NCBI GenBank assembly: GCA_045656745.1 | Contig: JAZORT010000022.1 | Location: 13,784 to 77,783, forward strand | From: Eubacteriales bacterium | Lineage (GTDB): Bacteria; Bacillota; Clostridia; Oscillospirales; CAG-272 | Direction of reading: 5' to 3' | Length of the DNA stretch: 64,000 bases | Shown here: positions 4,000 through 12,806 of the stretch, one piece after another | Layout of the letters: each line of letters opens with the position of its first letter | Position numbering within the stretch: position 1 is the first letter of the stretch | Notes under the pieces: generated by a model | Told to the model about the DNA's origin: nothing | The model's input: the letters and a program-made list of their open reading frames with translations, nothing else | Databases searched by the model: none | Translations under genes and position numbers: made by a program

Positions 4000-5134
4000 G
4001 GTAGTTTCTAATGTTTCCCACTTAAAAGTGGATATACAAGCGGTCATACGTTCCAAAAAGTCTATAAAACAATGGGCGTACATACTGCACGATAAAGACG
4101 ATACAGAGCCACATTACCACATATATCTTAACTTCGGTAAAACCTCGGTAGAGTTTGCCGACGTTGCTTCGTGGTTTGGTCTTGACGAAAACTTTGTAAA
4201 CAAGGTCGAAGGCCGTAAGGTAGATATGCTTATGTACCTTACGCATTCGAACGCAGGGCAAGAGCATAAACATCAATACTCACCAAAAGAGGTTGTAGCA
4301 AACTTCGATTTTGAAAGCGAAGTTGCTGTATCTCAAATACTTGGTAATTTTGAGCAGTTTTCTTATGCTCAACAGCTCGAATACATAAACTCGCTTTCGA
4401 TAGAAGAAAAAACGAAAGCACATTCAAAGTTAGACAAGCTCTGGAAGCTTCATTGTCAATGTCTTGTGTTAAAGCCCGACAGACAAATTGAAGTAATGTT
4501 CATTCACGGCAAAGGCGGTACAGGAAAAACCTATTACGCAAAAAAGCTACTTGCAAAAATGGGTTACGATTTCTGTGTTTCCTCTTCCTCGAATGATCCT
4601 TTCCAAGACTACATGGGTCAACAGGCAATTATACTTGATGACTTACGTGACAAAGCATTTGAATTTGAGGACTTGCTAAAGCTCCTTGACAACGATACTG
4701 CATCTTCCGTAAAAAGCAGATTTTCAAACAAGGTCTTCAACGGCAAAATTATAGTAATAACGTCAACCGTTCCTCTTGCCTTTTGGTACAGAGAATATCA
4801 ATACAACAAGTCAGACACCCTGCAACAGTTATACAGACGTATAACATCTTACGTTGTAGTAGACGAACAACACGTAAGTGTGTTTGATGAAATAGACTCT
4901 CGCGGACGTCCCTCGGGGCTTCCAAGAGTATTCAAAAACGAGGTACAACAGTTAAAAAGCCAAAAGCCGAAAAGAACCGACTTCGGGTCGGTCTTCGGTG
5001 AGATGCTCGAAGATGCGTTTCCCTCTTATATCTCCGAAATCGAACGAAAGTTTGATAATACACATTCAATAAAGGAGCAATACCAATGTCAAAAGAACGT
5101 GACCCCACTTCAAAAAAATGCAAACACGGAGTAG
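3980..5134 (+). CDS. rep: rolling-circle replication initiator: pMV158-RepB-like HUH nuclease fused to SF3-type P-loop helicase
   Basis: ILHDKD, EPHYHIYL and MLMYLTHS..KHQY match RepB motifs (LHDKD, HYHVLY, YLYLTHE, KHVY). Further on are Walker A GKGGTGKT, Walker B AIILDD and motif C IVITST. Confidence 0.8.
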   Translation: MRKKHCEVVSNVSHLKVDIQAVIRSKKSIKQWAYILHDKDDTEPHYHIYLNFGKTSVEFADVASWFGLDENFVNKVEGRKVDMLMYLTHSNAGQEHKHQYSPKEVVANFDFESEVAVSQILGNFEQFSYAQQLEYINSLSIEEKTKAHSKLDKLWKLHCQCLVLKPDRQIEVMFIHGKGGTGKTYYAKKLLAKMGYDFCVSSSSNDPFQDYMGQQAIILDDLRDKAFEFEDLLKLLDNDTASSVKSRFSNKVFNGKIIVITSTVPLAFWYREYQYNKSDTLQQLYRRITSYVVVDEQHVSVFDEIDSRGRPSGLPRVFKNEVQQLKSQKPKRTDFGSVFGEMLEDAFPSYISEIERKFDNTHSIKEQYQCQKNVTPLQKNANTE

Positions 5135-5793
5135 AAGACGTTGTATCGGTAGTACTTGCTATAGGAATTAGCGTACTTTCGATAGGTCTTCTCTTCTCAA
5201 TCTTCAAGCCCGGGGACTCGGGCGGTGGCTTTATAATAGCCGAGGGTTCAATAGGCGGGTCTGTAACCGTTGGAGGTCTTCTTGATAAAGAAGAGGACAA
5301 AACAGATGATACCACATCAGACACCGACAATACTACACCCGATACGGATAACAACGGAGCTGACACAGATAACGACACCGGAGAAGGAACTGACACGGGA
5401 AATAATGATAATACAGCCGATACAGATACAACACCCGGTGAAGGTACTGAAAACGATTCTGATACAACAACGGATAATGGAACTACCACAGATCCAGGAG
5501 AAAATGACACCGATCCCGAAACACCATCAGAGGGTGAAACCGTTTCCGAAATTACATTTACTATCGAAGAACTTGGTGATTTTACCGCAACTGAGGGTAT
5601 GACGTGGAGAGAGTGGTGTTCATCAGACTATAATACCACTGATACTATGTGTTCAACTTGGATGTCTAATCCTGAAAAGGAAATAGTAGCTTTTCAGGGT
5701 AATAATGGCTGTCCTCTTTATATGTCCGGTGCTGATGATGTCGAGGTTCATCCTGATGATGTAATTGTATCCGGTGCATCGTATTATCGTTAA
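5086..5793 (+). CDS. membrane-anchored protein with T/D/N/G-rich disordered linker
   Basis: AAAGGAG RBS. N-terminal TM VVSVVLAIGISVLSIGLLFSIF, an acidic Thr/Asp/Asn-rich stretch of about 85 aa, and a Cys/Trp-containing C-terminal domain. Confidence 0.65.
   Translation: MSKERDPTSKKCKHGVEDVVSVVLAIGISVLSIGLLFSIFKPGDSGGGFIIAEGSIGGSVTVGGLLDKEEDKTDDTTSDTDNTTPDTDNNGADTDNDTGEGTDTGNNDNTADTDTTPGEGTENDSDTTTDNGTTTDPGENDTDPETPSEGETVSEITFTIEELGDFTATEGMTWREWCSSDYNTTDTMCSTWMSNPEKEIVAFQGNNGCPLYMSGADDVEVHPDDVIVSGASYYR
5284..5538 (+). repeat. cryptic low-complexity coding repeat (T-D-N-G rich)
   Basis: Degenerate GAYACNGAYAAY-like units encode DTDNTTPDTDNNGADTDNDTGEGTDTGNNDNTADTDTT... Confidence 0.6.
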
Positions 5794-5812
5794 AAATAAG
5801 GAGCAACAACCT

Positions 5813-10449: not shown

Positions 10450-10557
10450 AAAAACAACATAGCTCTTTGGAAAAGATTACTATTTATCGGCATAACCCTT
10501 GTAATAGCCTTTGCAGTAGGTTATATCTTCTATACAGGGGGTAACTTGCCCGAATGA
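10447..10557 (+). CDS. 36-aa single-TM protein, translationally coupled to the ATPase gene
   Basis: MKNNIALWKRLLFIGITLVIAFAVGYIFYTGGNLPE. Its TGA stop overlaps ATG 10554 (ATGA). Confidence 0.5.
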   Translation: MKNNIALWKRLLFIGITLVIAFAVGYIFYTGGNLPE

Positions 10558-12806
10558 AAAACACTCTCTTTCAAAAACTCTTTATCGTCAAATACTTGAA
10601 CCATTGGAAGAGAGATTACAGGCACTTTATCTGTGTAGGTATAACGCTTGTATTCATAGCCTTCGGCTTTCTCTTCCCAAACTCCCTCGCACGTCTTGCC
10701 GAAACGGTGCGAGATCTATTCACTTCGGTAGCATATTACTTCTGTGAGCTTCTTTCCCCGGGCGGTAACCCTATCAGACCTACCGTACTTGGTATGCCTG
10801 AATGGCAGTTCACCGAGGATATATGGGAGCCGTTGCAACTCTTCCCATACACGTGGGAAGAATTTCAAAATTTGTGGGGTAAATTTTGGGCAGTATTCTT
10901 TACAGAGGATAATTTTCTCGGGTATTGGTACGCCATAGCAGACGTAATGTATTACGTTTCCCGCTTTTCGCTCCTTGTAATTCCGTTTATAGTTCTGCTT
11001 ATAATGAGATTAAGCTCTTACAAAAACAAGCAGTGTACAGACCGAAATAAACGCTCTACGGCTTTAAGGATCTATGAAAAATTCGTCTTCAAGATAATAT
11101 ATCCGTGTGTAGCTTGGGTGAAGGACTTCATAACCTTTTGCAGAGATAACAGCGGATATGTAAAGACTTGGGTTGTCCTTTGGCTTTTACACTTCAACGT
11201 AATAAGCATAGTAATAGCCTTCTTTGCGTTCTACTTCTATTTCTCTGCTTCTTGGGAGTTCGGAAGAATATACACGCAGATATTAAAGCTTCTTGTAGAC
11301 CTTGCCCCGATGATAAGATTTCTTCCCGGCATAGTATGGGCTTTGCTCGCCCTGTGGATATACAATTATATCTGTCGGTCGATGGCTTTCACTCGTCTTT
11401 ACTATGCTGAACGTTGCAACCGTTCCTTCCTCTCTGATAGAGGAATTGTAACAACGGTGTACGGTGAAATGGGAATAGGCAAAACGCAGATGATAACCTC
11501 TATGGCTCTGTCTGCGGAGATAGACCAATTCGATATGGCTTTCGAGATACTTCTCGAAAAGGATTTACAGTTCCCGAATTTCCCTTGGCAACGTTTTCGT
11601 GATGAATTACGGAAAAAGATAGATAACCGCACGATAGTAGACCTTCCAACGTGCAGAAAATGGGTGCAATATGCCCGGGTTTTCTTCGACAGAATAACGG
11701 CAATATACACCGCAGAGGAATACCGGGAGAAGCGCAGGAAGTATAGACTTCTGAAAGAAGATTATACTTTCGGCTACGACTACACCCACTACAGAACAAC
11801 GTATAATGACGAGTTGAAGATAACCCACCTGTTTGAAGCACTTGAAGACTACGCCTGTGCGTATCTGATTTTTACAGTAAAAACAACACTCCTTTTCTCA
11901 AACTATTCAATTCGTGTAGACTCTATTCTAAAAGACCTCGGCAATATGCCTTCACGTAACAACGATTTTCTCGACAGAGAGCCGGAATTGCAAGAGGCGT
12001 ACTCACATCACGCACACATAATAGATATGGATATGCTCCGTCTTGGTAAGAAGATGATCAAGAACAACCCGAAAGCACGTAGGCTGTCCTTTGGTACGTT
12101 TGTAATAACCGAGATAGATAAAGAGTTCAAGAATATGCAAGAGCTAAAGGAAATGAAGATAAACGAGCGAGAAGCAAACCAAAAGAATGACCTTCACAAC
12201 GCCTGTATAATGATGAGCCGTCATGCAGCAGTAGTAGCAAATAGGGTGTTTATACGCATAATAGCCGATTTGCAACGTCCTGAAGCGTGGGGCGCAGGTG
12301 GCAGAGAGTTGGGAGAAGTCATTTACATATCAGACAAAAGCGAACTCGCTCCGGCTCTTCCGTTCTTCTCACCGTATTGGCTGTGTCAAGGAGTCTTTGA
12401 GTGGGTAAAAACCAAGTGGGAAAGCTTCTACGCAGAGTATATAGAAAATAGGTGCGACAGTACGCTATTTACATATCTTGCGAAGAACATCACCGCAAAG
12501 ATCAATAACCACTACGACAAAATAAACGGACTCTTTGGTACACAGACGTTATCTCTCGAGATACAAAGCGGAAGACTTGACGGAGAGGTAAAAAAGGAAA
12601 AATGGCGGTTGATAATGAAAAAAGACCGTTCCCGAAGATACAGAACAGCCTGTCTTGAAGCCGTATTCGATAGCTACGAGCCGAACACAATGCACATTGA
12701 TGATTTTATAATGTACGCAGGAGAAGTCGGCACACAGGAAGAAAACGAGCTACAGAACAGTTATTTCCAAAATGACATAATAAAGATGAAGGAGCTAAAC
12801 GAGTAA
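10554..12806 (+). CDS. polytopic-membrane P-loop NTPase (possible Zot/pI-like morphogenesis or DNA-translocating ATPase)
   Basis: 750 aa with about 5 hydrophobic helices in residues 25-275. Walker A GEMGIGKT (nt 11463-11486), Walker B FVITEID around residue 517, then SRHAAVVANRVFIRIIADLQRPE, which resembles the Zot RH..hhhhTQ block. Confidence 0.6.
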   Translation: MKNTLFQKLFIVKYLNHWKRDYRHFICVGITLVFIAFGFLFPNSLARLAETVRDLFTSVAYYFCELLSPGGNPIRPTVLGMPEWQFTEDIWEPLQLFPYTWEEFQNLWGKFWAVFFTEDNFLGYWYAIADVMYYVSRFSLLVIPFIVLLIMRLSSYKNKQCTDRNKRSTALRIYEKFVFKIIYPCVAWVKDFITFCRDNSGYVKTWVVLWLLHFNVISIVIAFFAFYFYFSASWEFGRIYTQILKLLVDLAPMIRFLPGIVWALLALWIYNYICRSMAFTRLYYAERCNRSFLSDRGIVTTVYGEMGIGKTQMITSMALSAEIDQFDMAFEILLEKDLQFPNFPWQRFRDELRKKIDNRTIVDLPTCRKWVQYARVFFDRITAIYTAEEYREKRRKYRLLKEDYTFGYDYTHYRTTYNDELKITHLFEALEDYACAYLIFTVKTTLLFSNYSIRVDSILKDLGNMPSRNNDFLDREPELQEAYSHHAHIIDMDMLRLGKKMIKNNPKARRLSFGTFVITEIDKEFKNMQELKEMKINEREANQKNDLHNACIMMSRHAAVVANRVFIRIIADLQRPEAWGAGGRELGEVIYISDKSELAPALPFFSPYWLCQGVFEWVKTKWESFYAEYIENRCDSTLFTYLAKNITAKINNHYDKINGLFGTQTLSLEIQSGRLDGEVKKEKWRLIMKKDRSRRYRTACLEAVFDSYEPNTMHIDDFIMYAGEVGTQEENELQNSYFQNDIIKMKELNE

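Follow-up and report, generated by a model that had tools for sequence, protein, structure and literature searches.

The DNA analysed here, called the window below, is a stretch of 64,000 nucleotides (nt) from an Eubacteriales bacterium of the Clostridia (assembly GCA_045656745.1, contig JAZORT010000022.1, positions 13,784 to 77,783). An earlier, sequence-only reading had singled out a co-directional run of genes at window positions 5086-12806, downstream of a replication gene, as the envelope or morphogenesis-like module of a possible filamentous or pleomorphic virus or of a minimal transfer apparatus. All the open reading frames (ORFs) listed for that run are present on the + strand at these positions. 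The gene run is real, but it is only one portion of an element that occupies window positions 2803-15540 (12,738 bp), and the description given then did not include the downstream IS30-family gene as an integrase, the defined ends of the element and the promoter formed at their junction, or the exchange of replication genes among relatives. Our analysis indicates that the flagged genes are the membrane and transmission module of an integrative, self-replicating mobile element that is common in gut and rumen Clostridia.

Ends of the element

The element is bracketed by a perfect 15-bp direct repeat, CTAAAAAAGCGCCCC, with its left copy at 2788-2802 and its right copy at 15541-15555; no other direct repeat of 13 nt or more with a spacing of 9-17 kb occurs in the first 20 kb of the window. 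The closest relative (L008), which lies at another chromosomal site and whose membrane ATPase is 92% identical to that of the window, has a 15-mer of another sequence in precisely the corresponding place. Each of seven more loci has its own repeat of 14-18 bp, so that ends were mapped in nine loci altogether. Because the repeated sequences differ between loci at homologous positions, they are target-site duplications (TSDs) and not an att core. In blastn comparisons with related loci, homology to L008 spans window positions 2847-15372 and takes in the downstream IS30-family gene. Integration at a tRNA gene was rejected, there being no tRNA in the window, and megablast searches with the element returned no match in phage and plasmid collections.

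Terminal repeats were found at both tips. In the left one (2803-2828, +), a TATAAT hexamer at 2812-2817, 9 nt from the tip, is followed by an 11-nt inverted-repeat core, GTTATTTGCAA (2818-2828), and the motif GTTTATAAT is kept at the left tips of other loci. In the right one (15515-15540, +), the core TTGCAAATAAC (15515-15525) precedes a TTGACA hexamer at 15529-15534, 6 nt from the tip. The two 11-nt cores match perfectly and in register, 16 nt from each tip. When the tips were compared, 17 of the first 45 positions matched, mostly inside the first 26 nt, and the end motifs are kept across loci.

Transposase and circular form

A gene for an IS30-family DDE transposase lies at 14426-15532 (+; HTH_38 9e-7, rve 1.5e-4, phrog_4646 3e-107). 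A transposase gene stands downstream of the ATPase gene, on the same strand, in at least 21 of 42 loci, and since it is kept at the right end in this orientation across loci, it is the element's own integrase. By these features it is the enzyme that inserts the element, leaving a target duplication of 14-18 bp. The protein is 40-49% identical to integrases of Faecalibacterium and Enterocloster phages (phages of gut Clostridia) and of 9-10-kb gut Inoviridae, 40-41% identical to that of the gut Inoviridae bajarodino viruses 13 and 74, and 32% identical over 228 amino acids (aa) to ORF3 of plectrovirus SpV1 (SpV1-R8A2B).

A circular form was found in a relative whose ATPase is 72% identical to that of the window. 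This sequence (L048) is a 13,647-bp megahit (k141) contig with an exact 141-nt terminal overlap, which is the signature of a circular megahit contig, and it is therefore a circle. Across its junction, the transposase gene is followed directly by a leader gene, the Rep gene and the module. The junction reads ACTACTTGACATTAGCG-GT-TCTAAAGTTTATAATGTTATTTGCAAGG or, in other extents, CTTGACATTAGCG-GT-TCTAAAGTTTATAAT and TTGACATTAGCG-GT-TCTAAAGTTTATAAT. Joining the tips with a 2-bp spacer predicts TTGACA-N17-TATAAT, with which the L048 junction agrees, and a predicted junction promoter with a spacer of 14-17 nt is obtained in all nine loci with mapped ends. Judged from the sequences, the junction builds a consensus sigma-A promoter that points into the leader genes w105 and w68, the Rep gene and the module.

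The free circle of about 12.7 kb that had been anticipated thus has a counterpart in the circular contig of this relative, but a search by exact pattern revealed no further circle junctions in the JGI metagenomes and IMG/VR. The ATPase loci from the JGI metagenomes included no element-size contigs, and among the other contigs of 13-15 kb, some were integrated copies and the rest were free of host DNA but had no terminal overlap. Two contigs, L001 (14.1 kb) and L052 (13.4 kb), contain element genes only, with neither a transposase nor host DNA, and are probably episomal members.

Replication genes and origins

The Rep gene (3980-5134, +) encodes a rolling-circle initiator composed of a RepB-type HUH domain (motifs HDKD, HYHIYL and YLTH) and a superfamily 3 (SF3) helicase domain (GKGGTGKT). 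Pfam returned Rep_OBD (1e-8) and RNA_helicase (1e-9), and Rep helicase domains of the PDB matched at 1e-4. The protein shares about 35% identity, across about 90% of its length, with a phytoplasma plasmid Rep, and small gut inoviruses have Reps that match its HUH domain. Immediately upstream, a 110-aa protein (3667-3999, +) is a stand-alone paralogue of the Rep N-terminal (origin-binding/HUH) domain, with 34% identity to Rep residues 6-95 (E 1e-14). In relatives, the position of Rep is taken by a Rep_trans Rep, or by a single-stranded DNA-binding protein (SSB; in L001) and another large protein. All identifiable Reps are rolling-circle initiators, which suggests that a single-stranded intermediate is common to the whole family.

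The double-strand origin precedes these genes (3474-3633, +). It consists of GGTGTAWWT iterons around the hairpin GGCGCTG-AGGGCTTGTC-CAGCGCC (3564-3587), and its DNA fold has a z value of -5.3. In the relative L076, the loop is identical, the changes in the stem are compensatory and the iterons are different, a pattern expected of a nick-site hairpin and a Rep-specific binding locus. The leader genes w105 (2931-3248, +) and w68 (3261-3467, +) are the first genes after the junction promoter; they are kept upstream of Rep in seven and two other loci, respectively, and neither gave a family match.

Beyond the module, a highly structured non-coding region (13870-14425, +; DNA fold z = -9.1 relative to shuffled sequences) contains a perfect 20-nt hairpin (14008-14058) and is a candidate single-strand origin. 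Between the module and this region, three small genes of 89, 116 and 75 aa on the - strand (12882-13869) are kept with the element and are possibly regulatory; the 116-aa protein matches phrog_23592 at 3.7e-7.

Proteins of the envelope module

The module begins with a 235-aa signal-anchored protein (5086-5793, +) comprising one transmembrane (TM) helix, a T/D/N-rich linker (27 T, 20 D and 10 N among 92 residues) and a small C-terminal domain. Its N-terminus is kept in L008 and its C-terminal domain in L002. It is followed by a 72-aa very basic protein (5813-6031, +; isoelectric point 11.4, 23 K and R residues), which is kept in loci L005-L008, weakly matches a PHROG annotated as virion structural protein (E 0.0085) and is a candidate for a DNA-binding or condensing protein. 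The next gene (6038-6940, +) encodes a 300-aa signal-anchored extracytoplasmic protein; this core family has homologues in 18 loci, often as two tandem paralogues, and no PDB or Pfam match. The sequence-only reading had described this as a lipobox protein, and a lipoprotein assignment had to be dropped: the supposed lipobox cysteine is not kept in homologues, and the N-terminal segment is therefore a signal anchor. A TM-anchored SGNH/GDSL esterase of 298 aa (7001-7897, +; Lipase_GDSL_2 4e-16) with a P/E/D-rich linker comes next and is an accessory component, present in six loci.

The 470-aa core protein (7902-9314, +) starts with an N-terminal signal/TM helix; its ectodomain is all-beta and includes a hypervariable stretch, and it ends in a C-terminal hydrophobic helix and a basic tail, KDKPHRKRKRR. 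It has 195 homologues, and homologues are present in 16 loci. Structure models and fold searches were made for two proteins, this one and the 750-aa ATPase. In the AlphaFold2 model of the 470-aa protein (pLDDT 90.9), the C-terminal helix comprises 59 residues; Foldseek returned only generic arrestin/FN3-type beta-sandwiches, with a TM-score of about 0.1.

The following gene (9321-9431, +) encodes a 36-aa membrane protein with an acidic N-end, an LTTVxVF hydrophobic core, an NKKRRK tail and a strong Shine-Dalgarno sequence (AAGGAG). This family, with its strong Shine-Dalgarno sequence, stands directly after the 470-aa homologue in ten loci. By its design the protein resembles a small single-TM coat protein with a basic C-terminus, and it is too short for a test of homology. 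The basic tails of the 36-aa and 470-aa membrane proteins suggest contact with nucleic acid.

Two more small membrane proteins precede the ATPase: a 52-aa single-TM protein with an acidic C-terminal tail (10245-10403, +), kept in L008, and a second 36-aa single-TM protein with the pattern WKRLxF..TLVxAF.VGY.xFTGG (10447-10557, +), kept in at least 12 loci, whose stop codon overlaps the start codon of the ATPase gene. An intrinsic terminator at 12853-12875 (+) closes the + strand operon.

The proteins of the element were compared with Pfam, PHROGs, NCBIfam and PADLOC. No capsid, portal, terminase, Zot, VirB4, type IV coupling protein (T4CP), FtsK or defence family was found, which bears out the earlier statement that capsid, portal and terminase are missing, and searches of Pfam and PHROGs revealed neither lysis genes nor genes of a type IV secretion system (T4SS). 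A tailed or icosahedral phage (Caudoviricetes, Varidnaviria, Microviridae) was rejected, no major capsid, portal, terminase or packaging ATPase being present in the Pfam and PHROG results, and so was an anti-phage defence system, PADLOC having given only one low-complexity match (E 0.002).

A variable region (9435-10210) separates the first 36-aa protein from the 52-aa protein and contains a TM ORF on the - strand and a start-less basic frame on the + strand. The - strand ORF (9476-9613, 45 aa) ends at a strong - strand terminator (9463-9435); other members have unrelated - strand genes in this region, including some for zinc-ribbon proteins. The + strand frame (9685-10110) has 141 codons with no ATG, GTG or TTG before 9922, a Shine-Dalgarno-like AAGGAG at 9736 and a very basic C-end. 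Homologues are present in three loci, and Pfam gave no match; translation may begin at a rare start codon, or the gene may be decaying.

An orphan membrane ATPase

The 750-aa ATPase (10554-12806, +) consists of a helical N-domain with four TM helices (residues 1-295) followed by a P-loop domain with its Walker A motif at residues 304-311. Invariant or near-invariant positions are K310 and T311 in Walker A, E520, N542, N545 and D546, H557, and D572-x-Q574-R575. The family comprises 886 homologous clusters at 90% identity (E <= 0.001), or 862 cluster representatives at 50% identity, and most of the members listed are about 700-770 aa long, with alignments that cover almost all of the protein. 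Where a source is named, it is always a gut or rumen member of the Clostridia (Oscillospiraceae, Acutalibacteraceae, Faecousia, Lachnospiraceae).

No Pfam domain was detected in the window protein and 65 members tested, which includes Zot, VirB4, T4CP and FtsK_SpoIIIE, and sequence and profile searches of the PDB with the ATPase gave no match. With the AlphaFold model (pLDDT 89.9), Foldseek returned from the PDB only generic AAA/HerA P-loop matches with E values of 0.1 or worse, and no significant one to the TrwB, FtsK, VirB4 or HerA structures; from BFVD, it returned one unnamed viral protein of 269 aa (E 1.6e-3). The proposal of an FtsK/TraB/TcpA-type ATPase found no support, either from Pfam (window protein and 65 members) or from Foldseek. 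A RecA/DnaB-like reading of the ATPase motifs was likewise left without Foldseek support.

The pI proteins of SpV1 and of gut inoviruses have TM helices directly before the P-loop, as does the ATPase. In single-sequence comparison with gut inovirus Zot proteins, the ATPase matched on the P-loop only. When it was aligned by hhalign with a profile of 50 gut-inovirus Zot sequences, only the TM helix and Walker A aligned (probability 58%, E 1e-4). A resemblance between the ATPase and Zot in the motif N(E/Q)xxxLFN..(R/G)H followed by hhhD-x-Q was noticed by eye and is treated as a lead, not as evidence. These comparisons do not establish that the ATPase and pI/Zot are homologous.

Conservation and distribution of the module

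The same gene order was found in dozens of loci from other Clostridia, at ATPase identities of 38-93%, and because the order recurs in this way, the run of ORFs is not a chance string. A Rep, which can be of any type, stands first; it is followed by between one and three signal-anchored members of the 300-aa family, sometimes an SGNH esterase, and a large anchored protein of 460-970 aa. Next come the small protein with an acidic N-end, LTTVxVF core, strongly basic tail and strong Shine-Dalgarno sequence, and a variable, often - strand insert. The order ends with the second small TM protein overlapping the ATPase start, the ATPase, small - strand genes and the transposase. Some relatives have large LRR_5 or Flg_new domain proteins that stand beside the 470-aa homologue or replace it. 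Across loci, the module, which fills about 60% of the 12.7-kb element, is the constant part, and Rep and integrase are exchanged around it.

These data agree with the proposal of the sequence-only reading that this is an element type of Clostridia which, as far as searched, has not been described; it is real and coherent, its order recurring in dozens of loci. The searchable literature holds no description of the family, apart from a possible single case in a preprint, considered below. In virus-labelled collections, ATPase homologues were found only in two IMG/VR loci (L003, L004) and in one entry of the GenBank phage set (MT835493.1, L045); among these homologues, one lies on a human faecal contig deposited as 'Bacteriophage sp.'. 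The contigs of L045, L003 and L004 measure 57, 20 and 84 kb; since they are larger than the element, they are probably chromosomal fragments or adjacent prophages.

One metagenome-assembled genome (JAZQUS01) carries two different members, L017 and L022, on separate contigs, with ATPases 58% and 54% identical to that of the window.

Insertion sites

Target sites were compared using window positions 2748-2802 and the left flanks of L008, L014, L017, L027, L030 and L047. In six of nine reconstructed empty sites, the duplicated target has a TTGTCAA/GTCAAG motif at a distance of 8-12 nt and TATCAnAAAA farther out; read on the opposite strand, these motifs form a sigma-A-type promoter directed away from the element. 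In the window, the promoter-like site of a host gene (1929-2729) lies beside the left end at 2776-2748 (-). The motifs at the empty sites therefore indicate that the element inserts just upstream of host promoters, like TnGBS. The -35-like target motif resembles the right end of the element.

The TSD of the window is part of the rho-independent terminator of another host gene (15588-16436); this terminator (15549-15571, -) is made of GCGCCTCAAGTAATTTGGGGCGC and a T run, and one intact copy is left at the right junction. GC skew is positive inside the element and mostly negative over window positions 16000-64000. In L049 (3609-6340), a sporulation sigma-factor gene and spoIIGA (Peptidase_U4) lie directly next to the end of the element that carries the transposase.

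Comparison with known systems

Plectroviridae (SpV1-R8A2B) and the inoviruses of Firmicutes (Tubulavirales) share with the element a homologous IS30-family transposase as integrase, a rolling-circle Rep, a P-loop ATPase with TM helices directly upstream of Walker A, a large signal-peptide protein with a C-terminal anchor and small TM proteins with basic tails; they too have no capsid, terminase or lysis genes, and their genes lie mostly on one strand. The combination of a rolling-circle Rep with a circular replicative form, which characterises Tubulavirales, is found here in the HUH and SF3 Rep with its origin and in the circle L048. By contrast, the transposase is the only SpV1 protein with a homologue in the element, and the viral genomes measure 4.5-8.3 kb compared with 12.7 kb for the element. 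The element ATPase (750 aa), which has four TM helices and contains an inserted stretch of about 200 aa, has no significant similarity to Zot/pI, and a wall-directed SGNH esterase and long-linker anchored proteins are additions of the element. The gene order had been likened to that of phage Ff; the layout does parallel that of inoviruses and plectroviruses, but hhalign revealed no pI/Zot homology beyond the TM helix and P-loop.

The integrative and conjugative elements (ICEs) ICE6013 of S. aureus and TnGBS of streptococci integrate and excise via a circular intermediate by means of an insertion-sequence-type DDE transposase (PMC3942029). The element resembles them in its transposase-made circle and, as regards TnGBS, in its insertion just upstream of sigma-A promoters. 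These ICEs have recognisable type IV secretion and coupling proteins, whereas none is detectable in the element: of the features of T4SS ICEs, integration and excision as a circle were found, but not VirB4 or a VirD4/TraG/TcpA coupling protein (Pfam/NCBIfam, Foldseek). There is also a likeness in size, ICE6013, which has an IS30-like transposase, measuring about 13 kb. Unlike actinomycete TraB-type transfer systems, the element has an ATPase with no FtsK/SpoIIIE domain and no structural match to FtsK.

In IS30 of E. coli, the ends of the circle are separated by a 2-bp spacer and the junction forms a promoter. The element has the same type of transposase (HTH and DDE/rve domains), and in L048 its ends are abutted with a 2-bp spacer so as to assemble a promoter. 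It differs from IS30 in the 12.7 kb of passenger genes between its ends, in the length of its TSD (14-18 bp compared with 2-3 bp) and in its junction promoter, which would drive the replication and module operon and not the transposase alone. For a few members of the IS30 family, long TSDs have been reported. PMC3942029 cites the circle of IS30.

Phytoplasma plasmids ('pCRESS' plasmids; Kazlauskas et al. 2019, PMC6668415) have the same two-domain Rep, HUH and SF3, but are 3-5 kb long and lack an integrase, a membrane module and an ATPase. Plasmaviridae (Acholeplasma phage L2) and Pleolipoviridae resemble the element in their circular genome of about 12 kb, their integration into the host and their signal-peptide or C-anchored envelope proteins, and their release is non-lytic. 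However, the hosts of these viruses lack a peptidoglycan wall, the ATPase profile found no L2 ORF, and L2 has no P-loop protein. Pleolipovirus proteins were compared indirectly, via PHROGs.

A mobile genetic element (MGE) of about 15 kb (250-264.6 kbp) in Pumilibacteraceae MGBC157735 is strongly enriched in reads of virus-like particles (VLPs) from mouse gut (bioRxiv 10.64898/2026.07.08.737213). Like the present elements it has an IS30 gene at one edge, 15-bp flanking direct repeats, a rolling-circle-type Rep annotation and a host among the Clostridia, and it lies in a sporulation sigma-factor neighbourhood, as does L049; it differs in a TraG/TraD-type annotation, which was not found in the present family. 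This MGE, compared by description only, may belong to the family.

Taken together, these comparisons show that the IS30-type transposition and the RepB and SF3 rolling-circle replicon are of known kinds, and that the module lacks the hallmarks looked for in Tubulavirales (Zot), T4SS ICEs (VirB4, T4CP), TraB-type systems (FtsK), Plasmaviridae (L2 match of the ATPase) and capsid phages. The closest description is that of an integrative rolling-circle element whose transmission module would be membrane-based and non-lytic, a combination nearest in design to plectroviruses or, alternatively, to ICE6013-type elements.

Discussion

The module probably exports the DNA of the element by means of a machine that matches no known virus or conjugation system. 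We give nearly an even chance to the proposal that this export is non-lytic, membrane-based and particle-forming and follows the logic of plectroviruses and inoviruses, a logic supported by the phage affinities of the transposase and of the Rep HUH domain and by the TM-before-P-loop layout of the ATPase. The conserved order of the module, the coat-like 36-aa family, the basic tails, the LRR_5 and Flg_new proteins of relatives and the lack of lysis and T4SS genes also speak for it, and circumstantial points are the VLP enrichment of the preprint MGE, should that be a member, and the homologue on the 'Bacteriophage sp.' contig. A broader proposal is made tentatively, with rather less confidence: walled Gram-positive Clostridia would be host to a large, so far unrecognised lineage of viruses, or of virus-like particles for DNA transfer, that are non-lytic and have no capsid, and the element would belong to it. 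Its rolling-circle genome would be coated by the 36-aa protein and extruded through membrane and wall by a new four-TM P-loop ATPase, an IS30-type transposase would serve as integrase, and the junction promoter would be the switch by which replication and morphogenesis start only after excision.

In such particle-forming export, excision would assemble the junction promoter and thereby turn on the + strand operon, and Rep would nick the hairpin loop to give single-stranded circles. This DNA might be bound by the basic-tailed 36-aa membrane protein, possibly together with the 72-aa basic protein, at the inner face of the membrane, where the four-TM P-loop ATPase and its translationally coupled 36-aa partner could assemble the nucleoprotein or translocate it across the membrane. 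The 470-aa anchored protein, with its variable ectodomain and with adhesin-like domains in relatives, would cap or decorate the released particle and recognise the next host, while the long-linker anchored proteins and the SGNH esterase could handle the thick wall. The product would be a non-lytic, capsid-less particle, filamentous or vesicle-like, built from proteins that are unrelated to those of plectroviruses and inoviruses or have diverged from them beyond recognition.

Several points weigh against this proposal. A particle, protected DNA or single-stranded DNA has not been demonstrated for the family, and the role of the 36-aa protein as a coat is argued from design and not from homology. 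Apart from a TM helix and the P-loop, nothing in the ATPase is significantly similar to pI/Zot: hhalign gave probabilities of 58-84% for this region, and the C-terminal part compared with Zot reached only E 0.3, with no gain over shuffled controls in a spliced-alignment test. Virus-labelled collections contributed no more than the two IMG/VR loci and the single locus of the GenBank phage set. The VLP-enriched MGE of the preprint is not confirmed as a family member, and its annotations mention TraG/TraD. Finally, a circle made by a DDE transposase and carrying a junction promoter would suit an ICE equally well.

A minimal, non-canonical conjugative element is indeed the alternative that survives best, and we consider it unlikely but worth serious attention. 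In it, Rep would serve as relaxase and nick the excised circle, the four-TM ATPase as coupling protein and channel in one, pumping single-stranded DNA into a recipient, and the anchored long-linker proteins, esterase and adhesin-like proteins as a wall-spanning mating junction. ICEs with DDE transposases are known in Firmicutes (PMC3942029), the insertion upstream of sigma-A promoters resembles that of TnGBS, and Gram-positive conjugation typically involves TM-anchored wall enzymes and LRR/Flg_new surface proteins. Some relatives have Rep_trans-type Reps, which are related to MOB_T relaxases, and L001 has an SSB; the preprint MGE, if it is a member of the family, would add its TraG/TraD-type annotation. 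However, no VirB4, VirD4/TcpA/T4CP, FtsK/TraB, VirB6 or VirB8 was found in the element proteins of the window or in the 65 ATPase members, and none of these families occurs among the Pfam-annotated neighbour genes. The high-confidence model of the ATPase is unlike the structures of TrwB, FtsK, VirB4 and HerA, and the basic-tailed 36-aa protein, with its strong Shine-Dalgarno sequence, has no known role in conjugation.

It is improbable, in our judgement, that the element is an integrative rolling-circle plasmid for which the module is cargo, an ATPase-driven cassette for surface remodelling or protein secretion (adhesion, exclusion, wall modification) that benefits host or element, the element spreading only by transposition and other vectors. 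All module proteins are envelope proteins without a DNA-related domain, SGNH esterases and LRR/Flg_new domains serve ordinary surface functions, and the transposase-less members L001 and L052 resemble plain episomes. This explanation is weakened because the module is the invariant core around which Rep types and integrases are swapped, whereas cargo is normally variable; moreover, the module makes up about 60% of the element, and the basic tails of its membrane proteins suggest contact with nucleic acid. A satellite packaged by a helper phage, with a module that manipulates the helper or the cell surface, would account for the missing structural genes and for the VLP enrichment of the preprint MGE, should that prove related, but is very unlikely: no genes for helper interference or capsid remodelling and no packaging signals were found, the elements and stand-alone contigs examined, of about 12-15 kb, and a rolling-circle, single-stranded DNA lifestyle fit poorly with tailed-phage capsids, and the module is too large and too well conserved.

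The ATPase family, with its 862 clusters at 50% identity, carries no annotation, and most of these elements escape pipelines for virus detection, only two loci being in IMG/VR and one in the GenBank phage set. Should the module turn out to make particles, a common part of the gut 'dark matter' would have to be seen as a lineage of viruses whose morphogenesis motor is new, and it would serve as a model for the passage of non-lytic particles through a thick wall. Should the module instead be a transfer apparatus, conjugation would here proceed without VirB4 or FtsK. With either reading, the junction promoter, which would couple excision to the expression of a 10-kb operon, is a clean and testable regulatory design, and the insertion of these elements upstream of host promoters bears on the expression of host genes.

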